Shown here piece by piece: positions 11,583 through 34,327 of a DNA stretch of 52,258 bases. The number at the start of each line of letters is the position of its first letter. Position 1 is the stretch's first letter. Both the position numbers and the translations under genes were made by a program. This DNA comes from a virus (lineage: Duplodnaviria > Heunggongvirae > Uroviricota > Caudoviricetes): IMG/VR virus record IMGVR_UViG_2721755660_000011. One strand, written 5' to 3'. The notes under the pieces are model-generated. The model was not told where the DNA came from. It saw only the letters and a list, made by a program, of their open reading frames with translations, and did not search any database.

Positions 11583-12254
11583 TCAGCGACCAATCACCAC
11601 AACCTGACCACCGTCCCCCTCGTCTGCCGTGCTGATCTCCTGAGAAGCCACCCGCGACCCCACGCGCATTTCACCGTACAGAACAGGCAGAACATTGCCC
11701 TGGGCAACCATGTTATCCAGTGAGGAGAAATAGGTGTTCTGCTTACCGTTATCCGTTGTCTGTGTACGGGGAGTTCTGGCTTTCGGTGCCAGCATCTGCG
11801 CCACACCACCAAGTACCATACTGGCACCGAGAGAAAACAGGATACCGGTCATACCACCGGCCCCAATGGCTGCCCCCCATGCTGCAAGGGTGGCTCCGGC
11901 AGTAAAGAATGATCCGGCAATGGCGGCAGCCCCCAGGACAATCTGGAATACGCCACCTGACTTGGCCCCGGCGACTCTGGGAACAATATGAATCACAGCG
12001 CCGTCAGGCAGAACCTCATGTAACTGCGCCGTCAATCCGGACGTGCTGACGTCCCGCCCGGAAATCCGTACCTGATACCAGCCGTCGCTCAGTTTCTGAC
12101 GAAACGCCGGGAGCTGTGTGGCCAGCGCCCGGATGGCTTCGGCCCCCGTTTTCACACGCAGATCGATGCGGCGGCCAAATCGTTGTAAATCCCCGTAAAG
12201 GCAGATGCGTGCCATGCCTGGTGACGCCAGAGGGAGTGTGTGCGTCGCTGCCAT
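11583..12254 (-). CDS. I: Tail assembly protein I
   Basis: 223 aa; matches lambda gpI (MAATHTLPLASPGMARICLYGDLQRFG...). Confidence 0.9.
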   Translation of the reverse strand: MAATHTLPLASPGMARICLYGDLQRFGRRIDLRVKTGAEAIRALATQLPAFRQKLSDGWYQVRISGRDVSTSGLTAQLHEVLPDGAVIHIVPRVAGAKSGGVFQIVLGAAAIAGSFFTAGATLAAWGAAIGAGGMTGILFSLGASMVLGGVAQMLAPKARTPRTQTTDNGKQNTYFSSLDNMVAQGNVLPVLYGEMRVGSRVASQEISTADEGDGGQVVVIGR

Positions 12255-12895
12255 TTGTCGGTATACCTCTCTCGTTTGCTCAGTTGTTCAGGAATATGGT
12301 GCAGCAGCTCGCCGTCACCACAGTAAATGGCGGCATGATTCGGCACCGATGAACCAAAGCAGCACAGCAGCACATCGCCCGGTTGTGCTGATGACAACGG
12401 CACCTGATACAGCCCTGTGGCCTCCAGATTATCCAGATAGAGATTCTGACCTGATTTCCACCAGTCATCATGTCGGTAAAAATCCGGCAAATCGATACCT
12501 GCAAGATGATAGGCATCGCGGAACAGCGTATAACAGTCTGTCACCCCGTGCTCAAAACGCCGCCCGGTGAGATGCGGCACACAGCGGAACTTATGAATCA
12601 CTCCCCGGCAGACCAGCCACCACGGCAAATCACTCTGCACCTGCAGCCGCCTGTCGGCCTCACTCAGCCAGGGCAGACCACCGGGGTGGCTGTGGACCAG
12701 CGCCACAATCTCACCCTGCATTTCTGCCTGCAGCCAGTCTTCCGGCGACATACGGAAATACGCCTCCGGCTCACCGGAAATATTCACGCAGGGAAAATAT
12801 CTTTCCCCCTCCGGCGCTCTCACCACGAAGCCGCACGACTCCGCTGGCGCACATCGCCGGGCGTGCGCCAGAATCGCTGATTCTGTCTGTGTCAT
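12152..12895 (-). CDS. K: Tail assembly protein K (NlpC/P60-like)
   Basis: 247 aa; MTQTESAILAHARRCAPAESCGFVV matches lambda gpK; overlaps I as in lambda. Confidence 0.9.
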   Translation of the reverse strand: MTQTESAILAHARRCAPAESCGFVVRAPEGERYFPCVNISGEPEAYFRMSPEDWLQAEMQGEIVALVHSHPGGLPWLSEADRRLQVQSDLPWWLVCRGVIHKFRCVPHLTGRRFEHGVTDCYTLFRDAYHLAGIDLPDFYRHDDWWKSGQNLYLDNLEATGLYQVPLSSAQPGDVLLCCFGSSVPNHAAIYCGDGELLHHIPEQLSKRERYTDKWQRRTHSLWRHQAWHASAFTGIYNDLAAASICV

Positions 12896-12900
12896 GGGAT

Positions 12901-13599
12901 TTACTGCGAAAGTTTGTTAATGGAAAGGAAGCCGCCAAAGTTGCCGACGTTATTGCGGAACTTACAACCGCTCAGGCATTTGCTGCATTTATCCTTCGTG
13001 ATATCGGACGTTGGCTGGTCATATTCATCCGCGACAGCCGGACCGCTATAACCGCACTCATCACCGCGATAGGTCCAGGTGCAGGTGTTGGCCAGCATGA
13101 TACGTCCCGGAAAAACAGCGCCGTCCGTTTCCGTCGGCGTGGACAGTACAAAGGAGGCACTCACCGCGCTCAGTTCGCTGCACTGCTCGATGCGCCAGCG
13201 GCTGATCACCTCCTGCTCCGGATCGGCGTCACTGTTTCCGTTGACGAAGTTCACCGCATCCAGAAAACGGGCGTAAACCTTACGCCGGACCACCGTTCCG
13301 CCGACCAGACTCTGCAGATCTTCCGCCATCCCGGTGACCATACCGTACAGGTTAGAAACCGTCAGCGTGGGGCGCGTACTGGTGCCTTTGCCATTCAGTT
13401 CAAAACCACTCCCCTGAATGGGATACGGCTGATACTGTCGCCCCTGCCAGGTGACCGGCTCACCTTTTTCGTTCTGCTCATTACAGAAAAAATAACGTTC
13501 TCCACCGACCTCTGTCAGGTCGATTTCCCAGAGCACCACGCTGGCCGACTGCTCCGCACGGGTGCATTCATTCAGTGTTTCCTGCCGGATATCCTGCAT
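12901..13599 (-). CDS. L: Minor tail protein L
   Basis: 232 aa, lambda gpL-like by sequence and position. Confidence 0.9.
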   Translation of the reverse strand: MQDIRQETLNECTRAEQSASVVLWEIDLTEVGGERYFFCNEQNEKGEPVTWQGRQYQPYPIQGSGFELNGKGTSTRPTLTVSNLYGMVTGMAEDLQSLVGGTVVRRKVYARFLDAVNFVNGNSDADPEQEVISRWRIEQCSELSAVSASFVLSTPTETDGAVFPGRIMLANTCTWTYRGDECGYSGPAVADEYDQPTSDITKDKCSKCLSGCKFRNNVGNFGGFLSINKLSQ

Positions 13600-13928
13600 C
13601 AGTTCACCACCTGTTCAAACTCTGCGCTGAACTCAACACGCAGCATACTGACCCGCGACGACCATTTTGCGCAGGTCACCTTTATCTGCCGCCACTCATA
13701 AGGCGGCGTCCACAGAAAGGCTTTCCAGCCCCCGTGCTCAGCCAGAAACGACTCCAGCGCCGTGGCCTCCTCACGGGAGACAGACAGCGTCACGCTGTAC
13801 GTTTTCAGGTCAGCGTTCAGCCCGGCAGGCGCTCGCTGGGAATAGCCATCACCAAAGCGCACTTTCCTGACGGAAGGGGCCGAAACCACATCCATACCGG
13901 GTTTCACTTTCCAGCGGAAGGTTTTCAT
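13599..13928 (-). CDS. M: Minor tail protein M
   Basis: 109 aa, lambda gpM-like by sequence and position. Confidence 0.9.
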   Translation of the reverse strand: MKTFRWKVKPGMDVVSAPSVRKVRFGDGYSQRAPAGLNADLKTYSVTLSVSREEATALESFLAEHGGWKAFLWTPPYEWRQIKVTCAKWSSRVSMLRVEFSAEFEQVVN

Positions 13929-16504
13929 CGTCCACCTCCGGAGAACAGGCCACCATCACGCATCTGTGTCTGAATTTCATCACGGGCACCCTTGCGGGCC
14001 ATGTCATACACTGCCTTCATCATCTGTGGACCTGGCAGACCATTCGTACCGTCGTTCTGAATCACCACGTGATTGTTCTGATTAAAATTAATGCCTTCAG
14101 CCCGCCGCATCTGCGCCGGACTTCCGGCACCGCCCACATAACCACCTTCCGCATAGCCCCGCATCAGGCGGTACAGGTTGCCGACACCAATCCGGCTGGT
14201 TGCCTCCTTCGTGAAGACAAATTCACCACGGTGAACAATCCCCGCTGGCTCATATTTGCCGCCGGTTCCTGTGAATCCTCCGGTTGCAAAATGGAATTTC
14301 GCCGCAGCGGCCTGAATGGCTGTACCGCCTGACGCGGATGCGCCACCACCAACAGCCCCGCCAATGGCGCTGCCGATACTCCCGACAATCCCCACCATTG
14401 CCTGCTTAAGCAGAATTTCTGTCATCATGGACAGCACGGAACGGGTGAAGCTGCGCCAGTTCTGCTCACTGCCGGTCAGCATCGCCGCCATATTCTGTGC
14501 AATACCATCAAAGGTCTGCGTGGCTGCACTTTTTACCTGCGACATACTGTCCGTGGCGCTCTCTTTCCACTCGCTCCAGCCGGACCTGAGGCCTGCCATC
14601 CAGCTCCCGCGAAGCTGGTCTTCAGCCGCCCAGGTCTTTTTCTGCTCTGACATGACGTTATTCAGCGCCAGAGGATTATCGCCATACTGTTCCTTCAGGC
14701 GCTGTTCCGTGGCTTCCCGTTCTGCCTGCCGGTCAGTCAGCCCCCGGCTTTTCGCATCAATGGCGGCCCGTTTTGCCCGTTGCTGCTGTGCGAATTTATC
14801 CGCCTGCTGCGCCAGCGCGTTCAGGCGCCCCTGATACGTAACCTTGTCGCCAAGTGCAGCCAGCTGGCGTTTGTACTCCAGCGTCTCATCTTTATGCGCC
14901 AGCAGGGATTTCTCCTGTGCAGACAGCTGGCGACGTTGCGCCGCCTCCTCCAGTACCGCGAACTGACTCTCCGCCTTCCACAAATCCCGGCGCTGCTGGC
15001 TGATTTTCTCATTTGCTCCGGCATGCTTCTCCAGCGTCCGGAGTTCTGCCTGAAGCGTCAGCAGGGCAGCATGAGCACTGTCTTCCTGACGATCGCCCGC
15101 AGACACCTTCACGCCGGACTGTTTCGGCTTTTTCAGCGTCGCTTCATAATCCTTTTTCGCCGCCGCCATCAGCGTGTTGTAATCCGCCTGCAGAATTTTC
15201 CCGTCTTTCAGTGCCTTATTCAGTTCTTCCTGACGGGCGGTATATTTCTCCAGTGGCGTCAGCAGGCGCTCATACGCCTTCTGCGCCTCTCCGGTATACT
15301 TCAGCTGTGACGCCTCACGCTCAGCCCGGTCCCTTGCCACCAGTTCACCGGCTTTTTCCATATCCGACTGCAGCGTGGCTGCCGCCAGCCCCAGACGGGC
15401 ATTTTCACGGTCATCCCATGCACCCTGAAGGTTGGCACGGAAAGAGGAGGTCTTTCCCCGGCGCTGACTCCGGCTCTGGTACCACTGCCATTTTTTATCC
15501 GCCTCATCAAATGCCTTCTGCGCACTGGCGAGCATATCCGCTGAGGATTCAGGACGACCGATATCCAGGATGGCATCCCACATCAATTTGAATGCCTTCC
15601 CGGTTTTATCCGCCCAGTTTTCCAGCGTCCCCATGTTTTCTTTCAGGCGACGGGTCTGCTCATCAAAGCCTTTTGTGGCGATATCGTTCGCCGCCTGTAA
15701 GGCCCCTGCCTCATCCCCCGAACGCTGCAGCTGCGCAACATACGCAATCTGCTCTGCCGTCACGTTACGGAACTGGCGCGCCATAGCCATCAGTCCCGAC
15801 GTCGGGTCGGTGGTCAGCTTTCCAAAAGCCTCTGCAACCTTGTCCACTTCCACACCGGATGCAGAAGCAAAACGCGCCACACTCTGGTTGATGGCATCAA
15901 ACTGTTCACCACCACGCACACCGGCATTCACCAGGGCTGCCAGTGACTCACTCGCCTGGTTAAACGTCAGCCCTGCTGCCTGTCCGGCTCTGGACAGGAC
16001 CAGCATGCGATCTGCCGTCAGACCCGACTGATTGCCGGAAAGGACCAGCGTTTTGTTGAAATCGGACAGGGTTGAGTTGCCCTGATACCAGGCATACGCC
16101 AGCGCACCGGTCGCCACCGCCAGCGAGGTGGCCCCGACCATCGGCAGGGTGATCGCACCGGCAAGCCCCCTGAACATGGGGATCATCCCGCCGAAGGAGT
16201 CCTTAACCTGACCACCCTGTTGCAGCAGGATCAGCCACGGACTTTGCCCGCCTGCAAGCTGCGTGGCCACGTCGGTGAACTGTGCAGGCAGCATACGCAT
16301 GGCGGCTTTATACTGCCCGACGGAAATCCCCGCTTTCTGTGCAGCCAGCGCCTGCCGGTTCATCGACTGTTCAACGACTGCCGCTGTTTTTTTCGCATCA
16401 CTTTCCGTACCGGAAAAATGACGCCTGACTCTGGCCATCTGCTCGTCAAATCTGGCCGCATCAAGACTTAAATCAACGACCAGATCGCCTACCGGTTCAG
16501 CCAT
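13925..16504 (-). CDS. H: Tail tape measure protein H
   Basis: 859 aa, Ala/Gln-rich coiled-coil tape-measure protein in the lambda H position. Confidence 0.9.
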   Translation of the reverse strand: MAEPVGDLVVDLSLDAARFDEQMARVRRHFSGTESDAKKTAAVVEQSMNRQALAAQKAGISVGQYKAAMRMLPAQFTDVATQLAGGQSPWLILLQQGGQVKDSFGGMIPMFRGLAGAITLPMVGATSLAVATGALAYAWYQGNSTLSDFNKTLVLSGNQSGLTADRMLVLSRAGQAAGLTFNQASESLAALVNAGVRGGEQFDAINQSVARFASASGVEVDKVAEAFGKLTTDPTSGLMAMARQFRNVTAEQIAYVAQLQRSGDEAGALQAANDIATKGFDEQTRRLKENMGTLENWADKTGKAFKLMWDAILDIGRPESSADMLASAQKAFDEADKKWQWYQSRSQRRGKTSSFRANLQGAWDDRENARLGLAAATLQSDMEKAGELVARDRAEREASQLKYTGEAQKAYERLLTPLEKYTARQEELNKALKDGKILQADYNTLMAAAKKDYEATLKKPKQSGVKVSAGDRQEDSAHAALLTLQAELRTLEKHAGANEKISQQRRDLWKAESQFAVLEEAAQRRQLSAQEKSLLAHKDETLEYKRQLAALGDKVTYQGRLNALAQQADKFAQQQRAKRAAIDAKSRGLTDRQAEREATEQRLKEQYGDNPLALNNVMSEQKKTWAAEDQLRGSWMAGLRSGWSEWKESATDSMSQVKSAATQTFDGIAQNMAAMLTGSEQNWRSFTRSVLSMMTEILLKQAMVGIVGSIGSAIGGAVGGGASASGGTAIQAAAAKFHFATGGFTGTGGKYEPAGIVHRGEFVFTKEATSRIGVGNLYRLMRGYAEGGYVGGAGSPAQMRRAEGINFNQNNHVVIQNDGTNGLPGPQMMKAVYDMARKGARDEIQTQMRDGGLFSGGGR

Positions 16505-16931
16505 ACCGGACTCCTCCTGCGATCCCTTCTGATACTGTCATCAGCATTACGTCATCCTCCGTCATGTCCGCCACATCCGGGGAAGCGGGGATAACTTCAT
16601 TCCCGTCCGGGCCAAAGCGGACGCCTCCGGCAAGCCCTGCCGCTTTCTGCATCAGCACATCATCTTCAGGCTCTTCGTCAGCCTCACGCCGGTTCAGCAG
16701 ACTGAAATCCAGCGGATGCATATCCGGATCGCTGAAAAACAGGCTGAGCACGGTGTACGTCAGCCCGGAAAAGTGCATATCCAGCAGAACATCATGAAAA
16801 TAATGGGTACTGTAAAAGCGGTGCCAGTCGGCATACTCCGTGGATGACATCCCGGCAAGCATGGCACGCCAGTCGGGTCGCCCCATCTCGCGCGCCAGTT
16901 TCAGGGCAAAACTCAGCTCACCGTCGAACAC
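16497..16931 (-). CDS. T: Tail assembly protein T reading frame (expressed as G-T fusion by -1 frameshift)
   Basis: ORF in -1 frame relative to G, overlapping the 3' end of G; matches lambda gpT. Confidence 0.8.
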   Translation of the reverse strand: MFDGELSFALKLAREMGRPDWRAMLAGMSSTEYADWHRFYSTHYFHDVLLDMHFSGLTYTVLSLFFSDPDMHPLDFSLLNRREADEEPEDDVLMQKAAGLAGGVRFGPDGNEVIPASPDVADMTEDDVMLMTVSEGIAGGVRYG

Positions 16932-17335
16932 TTTCCCGCAGAAACAGGCTCTGCAGGCCCGGCGTCCTCTGCCTGTTCAGGGGCATCATTCACCACAAAC
17001 TCATACATACCGGACAGCCGGTACACCACGTTTTCAGCATGAGAAATTGCCTCTGTGGGCCAGGTGGTAAGCACTTCCTGCTCAATCTGTTTAACGGCTT
17101 CATTCATGGAAGGCTGCTTTGTCTTCTGCGGATGGTTATGCCACAGGGACATAGCCACCACAAAAGCACCGGTTCTGATGGCGTCTTCCACTGTAAACTT
17201 CCGGTTGCTGTCTGACTCCGCCTGTTCTGCCTGCCGTTTCATCAGGGCGAGATGCTCAATGCGCTGCAGGGCTGACAGTTCAGAAAGCGTGACGGTCACA
17301 CCGTTATGTTCAAATGATTCGGTTTTCAGGAACAT
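16913..17335 (-). CDS. G: Tail assembly chaperone G
   Basis: 140 aa, lambda gpG-like; contains slippery site near 3' end. Confidence 0.9.
   Translation of the reverse strand: MFLKTESFEHNGVTVTLSELSALQRIEHLALMKRQAEQAESDSNRKFTVEDAIRTGAFVVAMSLWHNHPQKTKQPSMNEAVKQIEQEVLTTWPTEAISHAENVVYRLSGMYEFVVNDAPEQAEDAGPAEPVSAGKCSTVS
16929..16935 (-). other. Programmed -1 ribosomal frameshift slippery site G GGA AAG (G-T fusion)
   Basis: Minus-strand sequence GCGGGAAAGTG at the G/T overlap; identical heptamer to the lambda G-T slippery site. Confidence 0.8.
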
Positions 17336-17350
17336 CGCTGACTCTCCGGA

Positions 17351-18091
17351 TTAACTGGCGGTGACGGTAATTTCTGCAACCGCAGCAAACTCACCATTAC
17401 CGGATACAACCGGAATGTTGACCTTGCCTGCAGCAACGCCGTTCACGGTGATGGTCATACCACTGACCGACACGGTGGCTTTTGTTTTATCCGCAGACAC
17501 CGCACGAAAGCTCTTGTCGGTTACGCCCTCCGGCTGGAATGCCACGGTCAGCGTGGTGCTCTGCCCTTTCACCACCGAGGTGCTGGCAGGCGTCACGGTC
17601 ATGCCGGTTGCCGCTGTTACCGTGCTGCGATCTTCTGCCATCGACGGACGTCCCACATTGGTGACCTTCACCGTGCGGGTGATCACTTCCTTCGCCGTCA
17701 CCGCCTTACCGATACTGCTGACCCAGCCACGGAACACATCGACCGTGCCGTTCGGGAAGCGGATTTTATAGGCACGGGTATCGCCTTCATTAAACCACGC
17801 CAGCAGCGCCTGCTGCCCCTGCTCTCCGGGCATCCACGCCAGCGTGAAGCTGGTATCTCCGGCAGATTTCTGCCCCTGCCCGGTCGCAGTCCAGTCTGCA
17901 TCTTCATCATCGAGATAGCTGTCGTCATAGGACTCAGCGGTCAGTTCGCCGGGCGTCAGGTCTTTAACTTTTGCCAGACGCGACCAGTCAACGTCTGAAA
18001 GCGGGTTCGCATAAGGGTCGCCGCTCCCGTTATAAACCCACAGGGTGGTTCCGGCACCTTTCACCGGTATTGCTGGATTTGGTACAGGCAT
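17351..18091 (-). CDS. V: Major tail protein V
   Basis: Matches lambda gpV from MPVPNP...; start placed at internal ATG (codon 11 of the longer ORF 17351..18121) to give 246 aa. Confidence 0.9.
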
Positions 18092-22625: not shown

Positions 22626-26306
<3,681 letters not shown>

Positions 26307-26332
<26 letters not shown>

Positions 26333-26852
26333 TCAGCAACCCCGGTATCAGTTCATCCAGCGCGGCTGCTTTGTTCATGGCTTTGATGATATCCCGTTTC
26401 AGGAAATCAACATGTCGGTTTTCCAGTTCCGGAAAACGCCGCTGCACCGACAGGGGGATCCCGTCGAGAATACTGGCAATTTCACCTGCGATCCGCGACA
26501 GCACGAAAGTACAGAATGCGGTTTCCACCACTTCAGCGGAGTCTCTGGCATTTTTCAGCTCCTGTGCGTCGGCCTGTGCACGCGTAAGTCGATGGCGTTC
26601 GTACTCAATAGTCCCTGGCTGGAGATCTGTCTCGCTGGCCTGCCGCAGTTCTTCAACTTCCCGGCGCAGCTTTTCGTTCTCAATTTCAGCATCCCTTTCG
26701 GCATACCATTTTATGACGGCGGCAGAATCATAAAGCACCTCATTACCCTTGCCACCGCCTCGCAGAACGGGCATTCCCTGTTCCTGCCAGTTCTGAATGG
26801 TACGGATACTCGCACCGAAAATGTCAGCCAGCTGCTTTTTGTTGACTTCCAT
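26307..26852 (-). CDS. nu1: Terminase small subunit Nu1
   Basis: 181 aa, MEVNKKQLADIFGASIRTIQNWQEQGMPVLRGGGKGNEVLYDSAAVIKWY matches lambda gpNu1; sequence GAATGAACAATGGAAGTCAAC at the start matches the lambda Nu1 start region. Confidence 0.95.
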
Positions 26853-26891
26853 TGTTCATTCGTAAGCGGCTCGCCAGAACCGTATTGATAT

Positions 26892-28463
26892 TTACTGAGA
26901 GGTCAGATCAACTTTCCAGGGCAACAGATCGCGTACCCGGTTTGCCGGCCAGTCCTGGATATGCTCAATGACGTAACGCAGCCATTTTTCTGGTTCCACA
27001 TTGTTCAGACGGCATGTGCCGATCAGCGAGTACAACACCGCCGCATGTTCGCCACCGCTGTCGGAACCCGCGAAGAGCCAGTTTTTCCGGCCTACGGCCA
27101 CTCCCCGTAAGGCGTTCTCTGCGATGTTGTTGTCGATTTCCACCTGGCCATTACTGCAGTACACGTTCAGGCCATCCCACTGTTTCAGCAGGTATGCGAA
27201 CGCTTTTGCCGTATCCGAGTGACGCGACAGTGTTTTCATCTGAGTCTGTATCCAGTCATACAGTGACTGCATCAGTGGCGCAGCTCTGGCTTTTCTTGCC
27301 GCCAGACGCTGTTCTGCTGTACATCCCCGGACTTCTGCCTCTATGGCATACAGTTCACCGATACGCTGCAGGGCTTCCGTGGTGATGTCGGTGGGCACTC
27401 TTGCATGCACATCGTGGATTTTTCTCCGGGCATGAGCCATACACGCGGCTTCCGTTATTCTGCCGGATTCGTATAACACCCGGTAACCACCGTAAGCATC
27501 GGCCTGAAGCACACCGCTGTAACCGGCCAGATGATTCTGTGGATGGACGCCTTTCCGGTCCGGGCTGTACGCGAACCAGACCGCCGGAGGCATCTGTGAA
27601 CCGGCGTTACGGTCATCACGGACGTAGACCCACAGCCGGGCAGTCCTTGTTTTACCACTGCCCGGCTCCTGGACCGGGACGGGGATATCATCGGCATGGA
27701 CTTTACCGGGCATCAGCACATACTGGCGCAGGACGTCATACAGCGGCTCCAGCAGTTCAGCAACGGCACCTGTCCAGCGCCCCAGCGTGGCGCGGCTCAG
27801 CTCCACGCCCTGGCGACGGTATATTTCTGACTGGCGGTATAACGGCAGATGGTCTGCATATTTCCCGGTGACAACATGGGCCAGAAGCCCCGCTCCGGCA
27901 TAACTGCGTGCAATGGGTTTTGAAGGTACTGGTGCCTGCACGATATGGTCGCACCGGCAACAGGCCAGTTTCGGACGTTGTGCTTCGATAACCTTAAAGG
28001 CGCTGCTGATAAGCTCCAGTTGCTCTGACACATCACATCCCAGAGAACTGAGTTCGCCACCACAGGCCGGGCAGCATTCCTCTTCCGGCCGGATAACCCG
28101 GGTTTCACGGGGAAGTGAGGTCGGTAACGGTTTACGGGCAGAAGACTGGCGCAGGGGGGATGGCAGTGCCGGGTCATATTGCTCACCCAGCGTTTCTGCC
28201 ATTTCTTCCTGAAGTGCGCTGATTCGCTCCTGTGCTTCCTGTATCTGCCGTTCGGTTTTTGCACGAAGTTTTTCTGAGCTTTTACCGAACTGCATACGCT
28301 GCAGTTTCGCAACCAGCGCCTTCAGCCGGTTGATTTCGGAAGCATAAGCCGCCACCCGCTGTGAGAGCAGGCGGTTGTATTCAGCCATCTGGCGGATGGT
28401 GTCCTGTTGTGTCTGCAACAGTGCCCGCAGGCGGGCATTCTCATGAGCAAGTGAGGTGTCCAT
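26892..28463 (-). CDS. IS66-family transposase TnpC
   Basis: 523 aa; N-terminal coiled-coil region then CxxC...CxxC zinc-binding and DDE domain typical of IS66 TnpC. Confidence 0.85.
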
Positions 28464-28482
28464 ATCCTCACTTTACATCGGG

Positions 28483-28830
28483 TTATATGCGGATTCCAGC
28501 GCGTTCCGTTCGTTTCGGGTGCTTCCAGTTGATGCCCTCAAGAAGCATGGACAACTGAGCCGGAGTAAGGTGAACCTTTCCATCGCGGGTGACCGGCCAG
28601 ACGAAGCGGCCCCGCTCCAGGCGTTTGGTGAAGAGGCACAGTCCGTCGCTGTCAGCCCACAACACTTTTATCTGGTCACCCCGGCGTCCGCGGAAGATGA
28701 ACAGATGCCCGGAGAACGGGTCATCCTTCAGGACGTTCTGAACTTTTGATGCCAGGCCGTTAAAACCATTTCGCATGTCGGTGATACCGGCAACCAGCCA
28801 GATACGTGAACCGGCAGGGAGAGATATCAT
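28483..28830 (-). CDS. IS66-family accessory protein TnpB
   Basis: 115 aa, MISLPAGSRIWLVAGITDMRNGFNGL... typical IS66 orfB product. Confidence 0.85.
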   Translation of the reverse strand: MISLPAGSRIWLVAGITDMRNGFNGLASKVQNVLKDDPFSGHLFIFRGRRGDQIKVLWADSDGLCLFTKRLERGRFVWPVTRDGKVHLTPAQLSMLLEGINWKHPKRTERAGIRI

Positions 28831-29480
28831 CAGTGGCTGCTCCCTTTCATTTCGCGGATAAGTGTCTGTAATAACGCCGGTGTCAGTTCACCTTTCAGCC
28901 TGAGAGTTCCGGCCGGCAGAACCAGCTCGCAGCACAGACTGTCTGGCAGTGTATTTATCTGTTCAGGTATCTGCACTGGTGCCGGGATTTTATTATCCGG
29001 CTCCGGAGTTAACGTCACGGGAAGTAGCGATGTTTCATGTTCGCCGGGCGGCTGCAGGCCGCCGTTACGCCAGAGATGCCGCCAGTTAAAGAGCAGGTTA
29101 TCGTTGATTCCGTTCTCACGAGCTATTTGTGCGACACAGGCACCGGGTAAAAGAGTCCGCTGAACAAGTCTCCATTTAAACTCCGGTGAAAATCGGTTCC
29201 GGCGGGGTTTCTCTGCTTTCACAGGCTGAGTCACGGTCGGGGTTGAAGGATATCGCCCCGGGAAAAGAGCCCGGGCCAGTTGCCCGCAGGAATATTCACC
29301 GGAAAGGGGCCAGTCAGTGAATACCTGGTGAAATCGCCTCACCAGAGAAAAAATGGCGGTTTTGCTGACACCAGTCTGCGCAGAAATGCGCGGGTACGAC
29401 AGTGACTCGTCAAATCTCAGCTGTAGCACACGCAGGATCAATTCCGGATTATCTGCCAATACCGCCTTTCGTGCATTCAT
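28830..29480 (-). CDS. IS66-family accessory protein TnpA
   Basis: 216 aa, HTH-containing IS66 orfA-like protein; start-overlaps tnpB stop. Confidence 0.75.
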   Translation of the reverse strand: MNARKAVLADNPELILRVLQLRFDESLSYPRISAQTGVSKTAIFSLVRRFHQVFTDWPLSGEYSCGQLARALFPGRYPSTPTVTQPVKAEKPRRNRFSPEFKWRLVQRTLLPGACVAQIARENGINDNLLFNWRHLWRNGGLQPPGEHETSLLPVTLTPEPDNKIPAPVQIPEQINTLPDSLCCELVLPAGTLRLKGELTPALLQTLIREMKGSSH

Positions 29481-30253
29481 CTTAAATGTCCTTTTACTGC
29501 GAAAATGGACATTAGTATCGGAAACAGGAAAGGGAGGCGAAAGACGGTTTAAATGATGCGCTTACACAATAATAATCTTCTACCCTTATCAGTACCTTTA
29601 CTGCTGTGCTCCAACACAGCAGTTTTTTTGATTATGCTCACATATTTTTCATCCCCACCGCACTGCACATTATAACTGTTGCTTTTCAATTCAGGCTTTG
29701 TGCAGGTATGTCTGAATCTCCTCCGGGAGAGGTCTTCATCGTTATCAGCCCCAAAACACACCAGCGACACTGACAAAGAGCCTGCGAGTGCAGTTGCCCC
29801 GTTTTCGTTTTATGATGTATTCACCCAGTCAAATAATGAGCAAATTCAATCCATGTCAGACGGCAGAGAATCATAAAATTTAACCATCGTGCTTACATAA
29901 ACAATCCGATAAAGACTTAACATACTTAAAATCGCATATTGCATAAGAATAAATAATAAGTCATCAAAAAACATCGGGCAAAACTACCGCAACTCCAGTT
30001 AAAAAGACAATATATTAATCCAGCGACCTCATTTATTATTCAGAAATGCTTAATAATAAGATATTTCCTGTTATTCCTTTATGGAGATCGGGTAACGGCT
30101 CCATGCCAGTCTTGTTGAATGGCTCAAAAAATAAGAGAATAATTCATAACATATATTGTAATTCAGGCTCGGTTATTTCGAATTGAATACTTGCATTAAA
30201 ATCTGATAAAAAATTCGTCATAACAACAACATTCTCTTCTGCATGTGCCATAA

Positions 30254-30283
30254 CCTGCCGTAACAACCCGGCAGGTTTTTTTA
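30254..30283 (+). terminator. Rho-independent terminator in AT-rich spacer between IS66 element and Rz
   Basis: 7 bp GC-rich stem cctgccg / cggcagg with 8 nt loop followed by seven T (30276..30282) on plus strand. Confidence 0.55.
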
Positions 30284-30482
30284 TTGAATAAATTTCCGGT
30301 TTCTTCCACCATCGCACCGGCCAGGCGACTATGAGGGGACAACGCCGCGCTCCGTTAACGCAGTAAACCCCGGTGTGTATCGTTTTTGATTATCCCCGCA
30401 CACTCGCGCAGAGGAGTCTCCCCGTAGGGCTGCGGTCTCTGTTAATGCGGAAATACGGCGACGATACAACGCATTGAAAAAA

Positions 30483-30965
30483 CTATTTCAGGCACTGAGT
30501 ACGGATATATTCCTGAAGCGTTCTCAATGCTGCCTGGTCGCTGATGATTCCGTCTCTGATACCGAGAACGTTTCGTCCAGCAACTGGAGAGAGTTCGACG
30601 CTGGCATCATTGCCCACGCGGGCGGTGGCGGTGGCTTCACGCACGGAGCCTGGACAGGTGGCGTTGATCCGCAGGCGCTTACGACCAGCGGTAACATCAG
30701 CACGCAGAGTTTCATTTTCAGCTCTCGCATCGGCTAATTCCCTCGAGTATTTTGCATCGAGCGCAGCAACATCGTGCTGGCGCTGCTGCATGTCAGCGAT
30801 GGTGGCGGTCGCCTGCTTCAGCTCACTGACTTTTTTATCACGCTGTTCTTTGTAGGCGATGGCGTTATCACGGTAATGATTGACCGCCCACGACAGGCAG
30901 ACGATGATGCAGATAACCAGAGCATAAATAATCGCGGCGACTCTGCTCACTGATCTATCCCCCAA
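30483..30965 (-). CDS. Rz: Spanin inner membrane subunit Rz
   Basis: 160 aa ORF; matches lambda Rz / DLP12 RzpD ([26 protein letters not shown]...); true start may be the GTG at codon 6. Confidence 0.85.
30524..30730 (-). CDS. Rz1: Spanin outer membrane lipoprotein Rz1 (embedded in Rz, +1 frame)
   Basis: 68 aa; lipobox LVVSAC; proline-rich (PPPPPAW) like lambda Rz1; wholly inside Rz in another frame. Confidence 0.75.
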
Positions 30966-31480
30966 CAGGCTAATGCGCTTTCCTGGTCACGACGAATAAC
31001 CTGTCCATAGCAGTTATTTGAACGTATGCGGCAATCGCGCCCACCATCTTTTATCCACCAGCGAATCGCCTCGCATGCACCCTTACGATCACCGGCATTC
31101 AGCCGCTTATAAAACGTCGACGGGAAACACTTACCGGGGCCAATGTTATAGGGACAAAATGACGCTATACCCGCTTTCTGTGGTTCGGTCAGTGGTACTT
31201 TAATATTGCGTTCCACCCATGCCAGCGCCTTATCACGTTCAATAGCGTTAACCTGGTCGCATTTTTCCTTCGACAGCTTCATTCCCGGTATGACGGGCTT
31301 ACCATCCACCATTGTGGCACCACGACAGATGGTCCATATACCGGAACCATCGCGGTATGCCGTAGTGTGGTTACCCTCTTTTTCATCCAGAAACTGGTCA
31401 AGTATTTGAGGAGCAGACGCGCCTGCAGCAATCAGCGCCAGAACGGCAGCCGACAGGCCGTATCTGATTTTTGCGTTCAT
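30947..31480 (-). CDS. R: Endolysin (lysozyme, signal-anchor-release type)
   Basis: 177 aa; matches my recollection of DLP12 RrrD lysozyme ([43 protein letters not shown]...); N-terminal hydrophobic SAR-like segment. Confidence 0.85.
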
Positions 31481-31543
31481 GGATATTTATCAGGATTTAT
31501 CGGTTTCTGCCCACGGACAGGTTTATCTGTTCCGGTCAGTGGC

Positions 31544-31894
31544 TTAAGGTTGTGATTCCGGAGGAGTCTTCAGAGAACCAGTAATTCTTCCTGGTAGCTC
31601 TCCTTTGTAGGTTATCCACACATTCTGCGCCTCTAAAATTACGGGGCGCTTTTCCGGCGACTGCTCATCCCCTTCACATAACCCGGCAGCAACATCCAGG
31701 AAGACCTGTCTGATGCGCCTTCTGGCTGCTGCTTCATAAAACTCCAGCGCGGCACCTTCAACACGGTCCAGCGAGATGTCCAGGTCAAAAATTTCACCGT
31801 CAAAGCGTTTTTTGTCCCGTAACGCTAAAGTTACCGTAACTTTATTCTCAAAATTGCGGATCCCTTTCACAATCAGTTCATAGTTTTGAGTCAT
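31544..31894 (-). CDS. Hypothetical protein between holin and endolysin (YdfR-like position)
   Basis: 116 aa ORF between S and R, a position occupied by ydfR in the K-12 Qin prophage lysis cassette; family assignment is by position and size only. Confidence 0.4.
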   Translation of the reverse strand: MTQNYELIVKGIRNFENKVTVTLALRDKKRFDGEIFDLDISLDRVEGAALEFYEAAARRRIRQVFLDVAAGLCEGDEQSPEKRPVILEAQNVWITYKGELPGRITGSLKTPPESQP

Positions 31895-31898
31895 TGAA

Positions 31899-32114
31899 TT
31901 ACTCTCCCCGTGCAGCCTTACGCTTGTCTTCTCTGATTTTGAAGTACAGATTTGTCAGATAAGTCAGGAAGCCCAGAACCAGACTCCCCAGTACACCAAT
32001 CGCAGCCCACTGTGACGGACTGACCTGATCAAGCCACTGTAAAAACCAGTAGCCAGCACTGCCTGCGGAGGTGCCGTAGGCAATGCCCGTTGAAATTTTG
32101 TCCATGGATTTCAT
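31899..32114 (-). CDS. S: Holin (phage 21 S / DLP12 EssD-like) with dual-start motif
   Basis: [71 protein letters not shown] matches phage 21 S holin; Met1/Met4 dual start typical of antiholin/holin. The longer ORF to 32192 probably overcalls the start. Confidence 0.85.
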
Positions 32115-32225
32115 AACCCCCACCTCGCAGATGCGGGCGTTGTGTAATGGAAACAAAAAAGGCCACCAGCGGCCCGTAAAAACAACACCCAATCAAAGGC
32201 ACCCGCAGATGCCTTTTGCGTGGTG

Positions 32226-32378
32226 TTATTCAGATTTGCGCAGTAAAGGCCGGAGCACGACCAGCACCATCACCACCAGCACACCATCTGCCAGTACCGA
32301 CATCAGCCGTCCGGTAAAATCCACCACCACTACCAGAAACAGCAGGATGGCAGCCAGCACAAGGCGCGCACTTTTCAC
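32226..32378 (-). CDS. Putative small hydrophobic membrane peptide (50 aa, GTG start)
   Basis: Hand translation on minus strand: VKSARLVLAAILLFLVVVVDFTGRLMSVLADGVLVVMVLVVLRPLLRKSE; GTG start overlaps the stop of the upstream 141 aa ORF in a GTGA arrangement. Not in the ORF track (under 60 aa). Confidence 0.3.
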   Translation of the reverse strand: MKSARLVLAAILLFLVVVVDFTGRLMSVLADGVLVVMVLVVLRPLLRKSE

Positions 32379-32800
32379 AGGTACTGCTCCAGTGGTAGCT
32401 GCAGCGCCTGAGCAATTTTCTTCAGTTGCGCTTCTTCATCCGGGCCAATGCCGTCCTGGTCAGCGATATCCAGACACAGGCACAGCACATTAACTGCGTC
32501 ATCAGTACCGGCAACATCAGCCAGCTGACGAAGGGCTTCAGCATTGGCAGAGCGCGGCGACGCTTCATAACGGGCGCGGATATTTGCACTCATTTGTGCA
32601 ATCTCACCGGAGAACGGCGCAAAGGCAGGAAGTGCTGCAATGGTTTTCTCCAGTACCGCGATTTCTTTCGCGTCACAGGTGTCGTCAGCGTATGCAATGG
32701 AATACGCACCCCAGACGGTCGCCTCCACTGCGTCGCGGTTCTCCATCTTCTTCACTTCGGTAATGGCCTTGCGAGTTTTCTTTTTGAAAATACCAAACAT
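32375..32800 (-). CDS. Hypothetical acidic alpha-helical protein (cargo at stx-equivalent position)
   Basis: 141 aa ORF downstream of the phage tRNA cluster and upstream of the holin; composition Ala/Glu/Asp-rich; possible TerB-like fold is a guess only. Confidence 0.5.
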   Translation of the reverse strand: MFGIFKKKTRKAITEVKKMENRDAVEATVWGAYSIAYADDTCDAKEIAVLEKTIAALPAFAPFSGEIAQMSANIRARYEASPRSANAEALRQLADVAGTDDAVNVLCLCLDIADQDGIGPDEEAQLKKIAQALQLPLEQYL

Positions 32801-32974
32801 CGTGACTTTTCCTTTTAGTGGGTGAGCCTGCGCCCGGGGGTGACCAGCCCACAGAGAAAGTCACACTGACCATCCCGTAAGCTCACCCCTGAAAGGCTCT
32901 GTGGTTTTTGATATGCGCCGGGCGTGGCGCGGATACAAAAAAGGCCCGCCAAAGCGAGCCGGGAAAAATAAGTC

Positions 32975-33051
32975 TGGCGCGTTGTACTGGATTCGAACCA
33001 GTGACCGATTGCTTAGAAGGCAATTGCTCTGTCCGACTGAGCTAACAACGC
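32975..33051 (-). tRNA. tRNA-Arg (anticodon UCU), phage-encoded (argO/argN-like)
   Basis: Reverse complement GCGTTGTTAGCTCAGTCGGACAGAGCAATTGCCTTCTAAGCAATCGGTCACTGGTTCGAATCCAGTACAACGCGCCA folds as canonical cloverleaf; anticodon loop CTTCTAA. Confidence 0.8.
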
Positions 33052-33064
33052 ATGATGCAGATAA

Positions 33065-33145
33065 TGGACCGCCATCGAGGACTCGAACCCCGCACCAACA
33101 ACCCTGTTATCGTGTCGTCTGCTCTTCCTGATGAGCTAATGGCGG
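33065..33145 (-). tRNA. tRNA-like gene with noncanonical anticodon arm (possible argN-like or pseudo-tRNA)
   Basis: Reverse complement has a good acceptor stem (CCGCCAT / ATGGCGG), D-arm (GCTC...GAGC), T-arm (CGGGG TTCGAGT CCTCG) and CCA, but I could not fold a standard 5 bp / 7 nt anticodon arm by hand; 81 nt. Confidence 0.4.
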
Positions 33146-33152
33146 TATGTTA

Positions 33153-33228
33153 TGGTGGCCCTTGCTGGATTTGAACCAGCGACCTGGCGATTATGAGTCG
33201 CTCGCTCTCACCACTGAGCTAAAGGGCC
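33153..33228 (-). tRNA. tRNA-Ile2-like (anticodon CAU), phage-encoded (ileZ-like)
   Basis: Reverse complement GGCCCTTTAGCTCAGTGGTGAGAGCGAGCGACTCATAATCGCCAGGTCGCTGGTTCAAATCCAGCAAGGGCCACCA closely resembles E. coli ileX-type tRNA; anticodon loop CTCATAA. Confidence 0.8.
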
Positions 33229-33268
33229 GGGCGCAGGATAATAACGGTACATAACTAATTCTGCAATA

Positions 33269-34327
33269 TCATCCGTTCTGACTGACTAAATCCTGAACTT
33301 CCTTGACCGTCTGCTCAAAACGCTCAGTCTCCAGCTCAACGCCAATTGCACGACGTCCCAGCGCCATCGCTGCTTTGACCGTCGAACCCGACCCCATGAA
33401 AAAATCTGCAACCAGATCTCCCGGACGACTGCTTGCGCTGATTATCTGCTGCAACATTTCTGCCGGTTTTTCGCACGGATGTTTCCCGGGATAGTACTGC
33501 ACCGGTTTATGCATCCACACATCGGTGTACGGCACCTGCACAGTCACACCGAAATACCGCCGCAAATTTTTATATTCTCTCAGCAGTTCCGTATACTGCC
33601 GGTTCAGTTCACTGTATGTGCTGACCAGCTGGTGGTGTGGCTGCTCCAGTTCACCGCGCTGATGTTTTTCTGCTGCAACACGCGCAAACAACGCCTGCAA
33701 TTTGTTGTAATCAGCTTCGTTCGGTAACTGCCACTGACTGGTACCAAACCAGTGCGAAGCCATGTTTTTCTTTCCGGTGGCTTCCGCTATCTGTTTTGAC
33801 GTTATTCCCAGTTCGGCACGAGCATCCCTGAAATACGATATCAGCGGTGCCATTATGTGCTGTTTGAGTTCCCTTTCTTTTGCCGCATAGCCGTCACTTT
33901 TGCCGCGATATGGCCCCTGGTAATGTTCAGCAAACAGAACGCGCTCTGTGGCAGGAAAATATGCGCGCAGACTTTCTTTATTACACCCATTCCAACGTCC
34001 AGACGGCTTCGCCCAGATGATATGGTTAAGCACGTTGAAACGTTCACGCATCATGATCTCAATATCAGATGCCAGGCGATGCCCACAGAACAGGTAAAGG
34101 CTTCCGGCAGGTTTCAACACCCGCCAGAACTGGGCCAGACAGTGGTCCAGCCACTTAAGATAATCTTCGTCCCCTTTCCACTGATTGTCCCAACCGTTGG
34201 GTTTCACCTTGAAGTAAGGCGGATCGGTAACAATCAGGTCAATGGAATCATCAGGCAGGGACTGAATAAAATGCAGGCAATCAGCGTTGATTAAATCAAC
34301 ACTGTTTATTTTTACAGTATTTTTCAT
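33269..34327 (-). CDS. DNA methyltransferase (amino-MTase, likely N6-adenine or N4-cytosine), apparently orphan
   Basis: 352 aa; motif IV DPPY near N-terminus (LIVTDPPYF) and motif I FxGxG near C-terminus (DFFMGSGSTVKAA); no adjacent restriction endonuclease ORF. Confidence 0.8.
   Translation of the reverse strand: MKNTVKINSVDLINADCLHFIQSLPDDSIDLIVTDPPYFKVKPNGWDNQWKGDEDYLKWLDHCLAQFWRVLKPAGSLYLFCGHRLASDIEIMMRERFNVLNHIIWAKPSGRWNGCNKESLRAYFPATERVLFAEHYQGPYRGKSDGYAAKERELKQHIMAPLISYFRDARAELGITSKQIAEATGKKNMASHWFGTSQWQLPNEADYNKLQALFARVAAEKHQRGELEQPHHQLVSTYSELNRQYTELLREYKNLRRYFGVTVQVPYTDVWMHKPVQYYPGKHPCEKPAEMLQQIISASSRPGDLVADFFMGSGSTVKAAMALGRRAIGVELETERFEQTVKEVQDLVSQNG

Follow-up and report, generated by a model that had tools for sequence, protein, structure and literature searches.

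Loss of the cos region beside an IS66-family insertion sequence in a lambda-like prophage

The IS66-family element in front of nu1

The stretch of DNA analysed here, referred to as the window (IMG/VR record IMGVR_UViG_2721755660_000011, 52,258 nucleotides), is a lambda-like prophage located at tRNA-Thr (thrW) next to proA. The annotation of E. coli OkiPb01715, a bovine-faeces isolate whose genome is near-identical, covers its head, tail and lysis genes, Q and the early genes. Directly in front of the terminase gene nu1 lies an insertion sequence (IS) of the IS66 family, and this element, its junction with nu1, and the fate of the cos packaging site expected immediately upstream of that gene are the subject of this report. 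The features of the locus are as follows.

24407..26332, minus strand: terminase large subunit gpA, 641 amino acids, intact (Pfam GpA_ATPase and GpA_nuclease)
26307..26852, minus strand: nu1, terminase small subunit, 181 amino acids, intact (Pfam Phage_Nu1, 164/164 positions, E 3.9e-101)
26854..26861: GTTCATTC, corresponding to lambda 182-189; endpoint of the 711-bp deletion described below
26862..29565, minus strand: complete IS66-family insertion sequence, IS679 group, 2,704 bp, ends read directly
26862..26886: terminal inverted repeat at the tnpC end, adjoining nu1, GTAAGCGGCTCGCCAGAACCGTATT; 17/25 match to the other end
26892..28463, minus strand: tnpC, DDE transposase, 523 amino acids (Pfam DDE_Tnp_IS66, 283/284 profile positions, E 3.3e-104)
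28483..28830, minus strand: tnpB, IS66 Orf2-like accessory protein, 115 amino acids (Pfam TnpB_IS66, E 4.7e-40; NCBIfam IS66_TnpB)
28830..29480, minus strand: tnpA, helix-turn-helix accessory protein, 216 amino acids (Pfam HTH_Tnp_1, E 1.7e-16)
29541..29565: terminal inverted repeat at the tnpA end, adjoining the lysis side; its reverse complement is GTAAGCGCATCATTTAAACCGTCTT
29566..29573: ACAATAAT, remaining copy of the original 8-bp target duplication, by comparison with strains GB089 and 06-00048
29574..30482: AT-rich region (~41% GC), without gene annotation, that separates the original insertion site from an Rz-like lysis gene

An earlier note on this DNA had proposed an IS66-family element together with its coordinates and flanks, and the proposal is confirmed: the element begins at 26862 with GTAAGCGGCTCGCC and ends at 29565 with GATGCGCTTAC. 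Both ends open with GTAAGCG and form imperfect terminal inverted repeats that match at 17 of 25 positions. The interior is occupied by three minus-strand open reading frames (216, 115 and 523 amino acids), the first two of which, tnpA and tnpB, overlap by 1 nt, and the genes run in the same direction as the late genes of the prophage. All three proteins score far beyond the curated cut-offs of Pfam and of the NCBIfam equivalogs (for example, 282 bits against 150 for tnpA with IS66_access_TnpA, and 476 bits against 180 for tnpC with transpos_IS66), and tnpC additionally matches the leucine zipper, zinc finger and C-terminal models of the family (Pfam LZ_Tnp_IS66, zf-IS66 and DDE_Tnp_IS66_C). 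Copies in GB089 and on 224-kb plasmids match the element at 100% identity. Over its 2,704 bp it shares 97.6% identity with copies that carry a transposase designated 'IS679 family' by PGAP, a figure that stands as a proxy for the 95% identity to the ISfinder IS679 reference that would define membership. Because it is intact and identical copies exist elsewhere in related strains, the element is probably active.

The start codon of nu1 lies 9 bp from the tip of the element, with the junction at 26861/26862, in agreement with the earlier estimate of about 10 bp. As the earlier note had reported, the phage sequence at this junction matches lambda: in the alignment, GAATGAACAATGGAAGTC agrees with the lambda sequence at the Nu1 start without a difference. 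From position -10 further upstream, the nu1 sequence has been replaced by the end of the IS, and the ribosome-binding site of the gene may be weakened by these substituted bases. Both nu1, whose product is annotated as the DNA-packaging protein WP_000453587.1, and gpA give full-length matches, showing that the terminase genes of a lambda-type cos packaging module are present in the window. The octamers that flank the element, GTTCATTC and ACAATAAT, differ, as had also been observed previously, and the 8-bp target duplication expected of the IS66 family is therefore lacking in this copy.

Sister genomes and the missing 711 bp

The unmatched flanks are accounted for by comparison with E. coli GB089, a ground beef isolate that carries the same prophage with 1 mismatch in 10.3 kb (none over 23300-26861 and one over 26862-33600). 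GB089 possesses an identical IS and an identical right junction. There is, however, one principal difference between the two sequences: in GB089, GTTCATTC is followed not by the IS but by the cosB sequence CACGGACAAAAACAG, and 711 extra bp lie between GTTCATTC and the IS tip, ending in ACAATAAT. The GB089 element is flanked on both sides by ACAATAAT, a perfect 8-bp duplication. Strain 06-00048 contains the same DNA without the IS and with a single ACAATAAT at the uninterrupted site, and in this strain the region equivalent to 29574..30482 is contiguous with ylcI/ynfO, cos and nu1.

The 711 bp of GB089 align with lambda from ~48158 through the cohesive end to 181. They hold a lambda-like cosQ, cosN and cosB together with a ylcI/ynfO-like gene, with cosN and the R sites of cosB being nearly identical to those of lambda. 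This cosQ-cosN-cosB arrangement, present in GB089, does not stand upstream of nu1 in the window, and no cosN was detected anywhere in the 52 kb, even when 3 mismatches were allowed. The earlier note had suggested that 29566-30482 be aligned with the lambda cos region; BLAST of these 917 bp against lambda 1-900 and 46300-48502 gave no match. The segment has been lost, rather than inverted or moved, because OkiPb01715, which shares the IS-nu1 junction of the window, is absent from the 15 records in which a nu1-cos-ynfO query is covered to at least 80%.

Read in order, 06-00048, GB089 and the window form a series consisting of the empty site, a simple insertion, and the insertion with an adjacent deletion. 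The absence of the duplication from the window is secondary to the deletion, as the earlier note had suspected. An 8-bp duplication does accompany the GB089 copy at the same locus, as it does related copies in MSI001, E203449, TW10828, 201609 and M8. Two other proposals have to be revised. No upstream cos is cut off from the terminase genes by the element, since cos was in the deleted 711 bp and is absent from the window, and in this lineage the element did not originally insert in cosB, since its first site lies beyond cosQ and the ylcI/ynfO-like gene, 711 bp away. The combination of an intact 8-bp duplication and an intact cos, which the earlier note had set against its own interpretation, is found in GB089 but not in the window.

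We regard it as nearly certain that a GB089-like insertion was followed by a 711-bp IS-adjacent deletion. In the first stage, whose outcome GB089 preserves, an active IS679-type element inserted normally at ACAATAAT and generated the 8-bp duplication. This site is 711 bp upstream of nu1, in a non-essential stretch that separates the ylcI/ynfO-like gene from the lysis cassette. In the second stage, the resident IS would have attacked the nearby GTTCATTC in the same molecule, a target separated by 9 bp from the start of nu1. The element would have stayed in place together with its lysis-side flank, its tnpC-side end would have been joined to the new target, and the intervening 711 bp, carrying cosQ, cosN, cosB and the ylcI/ynfO-like gene, would have been discarded. 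Whereas the sequence of the window is the product of this second stage, the route to it is one that we infer. The deletion runs exactly from the tnpC-side tip of the IS to GTTCATTC, an octamer used in the same orientation by related IS66-family elements. Endpoints at the IS tip and at an IS66-family target octamer point to transposase chemistry rather than to a random event. Adjacent deletion following IS insertion is a documented, common cause of missing duplications (PMC11708052).

As to how the deletion arose, one-step intramolecular transposition is the mechanism that we favour, with modest confidence. Several points weigh against it and against its stated consequence. Nothing specific was found in the literature on the transposition mechanism, target choice or adjacent deletions of the IS66 family, and one-step adjacent deletion by this family is assumed by analogy with IS903 and IS150. 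An identical final sequence would result if a further insertion were followed by IS-IS recombination, and a search of 5,426 complete E. coli genomes revealed no intermediate. Finally, the loss of packaging discussed below is drawn from the biology of lambda.

The two-step route just mentioned is the strongest competitor, although we consider it rather unlikely. Here, a second copy of the IS, oriented like the first and 711 bp away from it, would insert at GTTCATTC, and homologous recombination would then delete one IS together with the 711 bp. This would give the exact product, including the hybrid flanks GTTCATTC and ACAATAAT. Its ingredients are available, in that simple insertions of this IS group at GTTCATTC are proven, identical IS copies occur in the same strains, and recombination between IS copies is known to cost duplications (PMC11708052). 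Yet the intermediate that it predicts occurs in none of the 5,426 genomes, and a search with the corresponding right junction, IS|GTTCATTCCACGG, returned only MSI001 and E203449, two genomes described in the next section, neither of which contains this prophage. The two-step route also requires two events where one suffices.

The remaining alternatives fare considerably worse. The order implied by the earlier note, in which the IS first arrived at GTTCATTC and a later deletion on its tnpA side removed cos up to ACAATAAT, is very improbable: simple insertions at GTTCATTC do occur in other elements, but GB089 combines the identical IS and flanks with a perfect ACAATAAT duplication and an intact cos, and this state cannot be derived from that of the window without re-creating the insertion junction. 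An IS-unrelated spontaneous deletion or an assembly artefact is scarcely credible, for while short-read assemblies can collapse sequence beside repeats (a general weakness with no specific support here), the endpoints coincide with the exact IS tip and a known IS target octamer, and the window and the complete genome of OkiPb01715, 84 substitutions apart elsewhere, share the junction, so that two assemblies agree.

On the lysis side of the element, a strong terminator-like hairpin followed by a T-run is located at 29600-29623 on the plus strand, 35 bp from the IS and facing the lysis genes. In GB089 and 06-00048, this hairpin stands downstream of the ylcI/ynfO-like gene that the window has lost, and it is probably the orphaned terminator of that gene.

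A recurrent octamer in front of nu1

Junction-specific searches, to which all claims of recurrence are confined, revealed two further genomes, MSI001 and E203449, with an IS66-family element exactly at GTTCATTC. In both, the octamer is duplicated on the two sides of the element, the orientation is the same as in the window, and cos is intact beyond the IS.

MSI001, locus L003, 6555-6562 and 9267-9274: duplication of GTTCATTC
E203449, locus L005 (NZ_CM128603.1 3327085-3336384), 1932-1939 and 4651-4658: duplication of GTTCATTC

The MSI001 element resides in a Qin-like prophage and is 95.7% identical to the IS of the window. That of E203449 measures 2,711 bp and is 88% identical, with an identity of only 62-66% in the tnpC-side 600 bp, tip included. 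Its host is an island that encodes a primase, a single-stranded DNA-binding protein (SSB), a major capsid protein, a decoration protein, a helix-turn-helix regulator and a Nu1-like small terminase, and that possesses a lambda-like cosB; no large terminase was seen nearby in the annotation. To judge from that annotation, the island looks like a capsid-forming phage satellite, similar to the phage-inducible chromosomal islands (PICI-like).

By our count, three independent events have involved GTTCATTC. The junction in the window has a separate origin, as GB089 shows, and had E203449 merely inherited an ancestral insertion common to these elements, gene conversion could hardly account for its divergent IS tip. 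For counting independent IS events in other collections of genomes, CATTGTTCATTCGTAAGCG and TTACGTTCATTCCACGG are proposed as k-mers.

Other candidates were rejected. An initial BLAST search had returned many genomes with nu1 beside an IS66-family element, and these proved to be mostly joined pieces or different sites: in W13-16 and TW10828 the IS lies inside gpA, and in enterotoxigenic E. coli (ETEC) strains it lies beyond ydfO. ISEc8 in the Sp4 prophage of strain Sakai was considered as a fourth case and set aside, as it stands ~260 bp inside a different nu1 type, at another site. Among species-representative genomes, a 20-mer spanning the junction gave 3 matches, in metagenome-assembled genomes of Hyphomicrobiales and Bacteroidales, and these show no similarity to nu1 or the IS and are therefore ascribed to chance. 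A 23-mer version found no match in viral and metagenome contigs.

The ETEC insertions constitute a separate observation. In a DLP12/Qin-like prophage of E. coli 203740 and some 10 ETEC relatives, the interval from ydfO to the lysis genes contains an IS66-family element (locus L016, 5145-7843, in 203740) that is co-oriented with the late genes. Its flanks, CATCAGTC and GTTCACCG, do not match, and the lysis-to-cos interval has therefore undergone a second IS-associated rearrangement.

Within the 5,426 genomes, a synthetic junction query for an insertion at the GTTCATTC site in the opposite orientation returned none. Among 198 distinct flanks of this IS end, collected from viral and metagenome contigs, there is a weak AT-centred preference, with a peak of 0.25 bit per position, consisting of T/A at -6, -5 and -3. 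Nearly every octamer in this set is unique, and none is the nu1 site, which rules out a strict target consensus as the cause of the recurrence. Similarity between the flank of the cosB R1 site and the subterminal sequence of the IS was likewise considered. The best match, AAACAG-GAAAGG, reached p ~0.01 as one of 8 tests and is not significant after correction.

The recurrence is nevertheless real: few insertions fall at this site, but roughly estimated they are far commoner than uniform targeting of a 5-Mb genome would give. We suggest, tentatively, that IS679-group elements may have a genuine, orientation-specific hot spot in GTTCATTC, which is flanked by cosB R1 and the start codon of nu1. 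There have been at least three independent hits, by three IS variants in three elements (the thrW prophage, the Qin-like prophage and the satellite-like island). Should the suggestion hold, something beyond the 8-bp sequence would guide the IS66-family transposase, such as the bent architecture of cosB when bound by IHF or Nu1, or nearby sequence, and phages and satellites that package from cos would be disabled by IS66 elements again and again. That one octamer before nu1 has been used repeatedly provides a small lead on IS66 target choice.

Packaging, the remaining prophage and known systems

In lambda, cos acts in cis, being the place where terminase binds and nicks. The terminase, head, tail and lysis genes of the window appear intact, but a prophage lacking cosN and cosB would, from established lambda biology, be incapable of packaging its own genome, because its terminase is left without a cis-acting site to bind and cut. 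The earlier view that the prophage is defective is thereby upheld with respect to packaging, and a vague label of 'probably defective' becomes a specific cis-acting defect, the loss of the packaging site. Spread of this prophage as a phage would need cos to be restored by recombination with another lambdoid prophage. It could still provide terminase and particles to other cos-bearing DNA in the cell.

It had further been proposed that the IS cuts the packaging genes off from late transcription. This is unproven. The element is co-oriented with the late genes, and a consensus scan found one weak terminator-like site on the late strand inside it, with counts at the level of shuffled sequence. 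Moreover, Q-modified RNA polymerase reads through terminators.

Elsewhere in the prophage, an IS186/IS421-type element interrupts rusA, as the earlier note had reported. Its ends lie at ~38494 and 39831, reading CATAAGCGCTAACTTAAGGGTTG, and it is bordered by an 11-bp GC-rich duplication, TCCCACACCCC, which identifies it as a simple insertion. Downstream of Q, a tRNA cluster at 32975-33228 contains a tRNA-Arg(tct) and a tRNA with a CAT anticodon, both called by ARAGORN (the latter is tRNA-Ile in RefSeq). RefSeq places a 'tRNA-OTHER' between them, for which ARAGORN makes no call, and the arrangement resembles the ileZ-argN-argO cluster of Stx-type lambdoid prophages such as Sakai Sp4. At the prophage end, beyond a tail-fibre assembly pseudogene, 1084-3708 contains an ompT homologue and an alpha/beta hydrolase gene that, by their annotation, may be prophage cargo. 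Finally, 83 of the 84 substitutions that distinguish the window from OkiPb01715 fall in the gpJ/tail-fibre region at 5797-9654 and make up all those within 1-17025, the one remaining in the compared sequence being at 17955. This distribution suggests a recombination patch in the host-range genes.

What is described here is an ordinary, well-known kind of prophage decay, and it leaves current understanding unchanged. Nonetheless, GB089, 06-00048 and the window together provide a clean natural series for the IS66 family, whose transposition mechanism is poorly characterised. IS679 itself was reportedly described from plasmid pB171 of enteropathogenic E. coli (EPEC) by Han et al. 2001. The window element has the same length of 2,704 bp, the same tnpA/tnpB/tnpC organisation and the same imperfect ~25-bp terminal repeats starting with GTAAGCG, and its orthologous copy in GB089 carries the 8-bp duplication. 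It differs from IS679 in that the window copy has no duplication, owing to the adjacent deletion.

The order of events proposed here parallels that of the IS150 cases in the Lenski long-term lines, where insertion likewise came first and a deletion extending from one IS end removed one copy of the duplication (PMC11708052). The IS family is different, however, and adjacent deletion by an IS66-family element was not found described in the literature.

Another parallel is the Sp4 prophage of E. coli O157:H7 Sakai, in which ISEc8, also of the IS66 family, interrupts nu1 while cos is intact; a different prophage supplies the terminase that continues to package Sp4 DNA (PMC2669165). In both prophages, an IS66-family element co-oriented with the late genes harms a lambdoid packaging module. 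Unlike in Sp4, where the coding sequence of nu1 is the site of the IS and cos survives, nu1 in the window is intact and cos is gone, and the resulting defect would act in cis and could not be complemented. The DLP12 and Qin prophages of K-12, with nohD and nohA, similarly possess, by annotation, a nu1 homologue beside ylcI/ynfO and have decayed via IS insertions, but the prophage in the window differs from these in keeping its full annotated set of head, tail and lysis genes.

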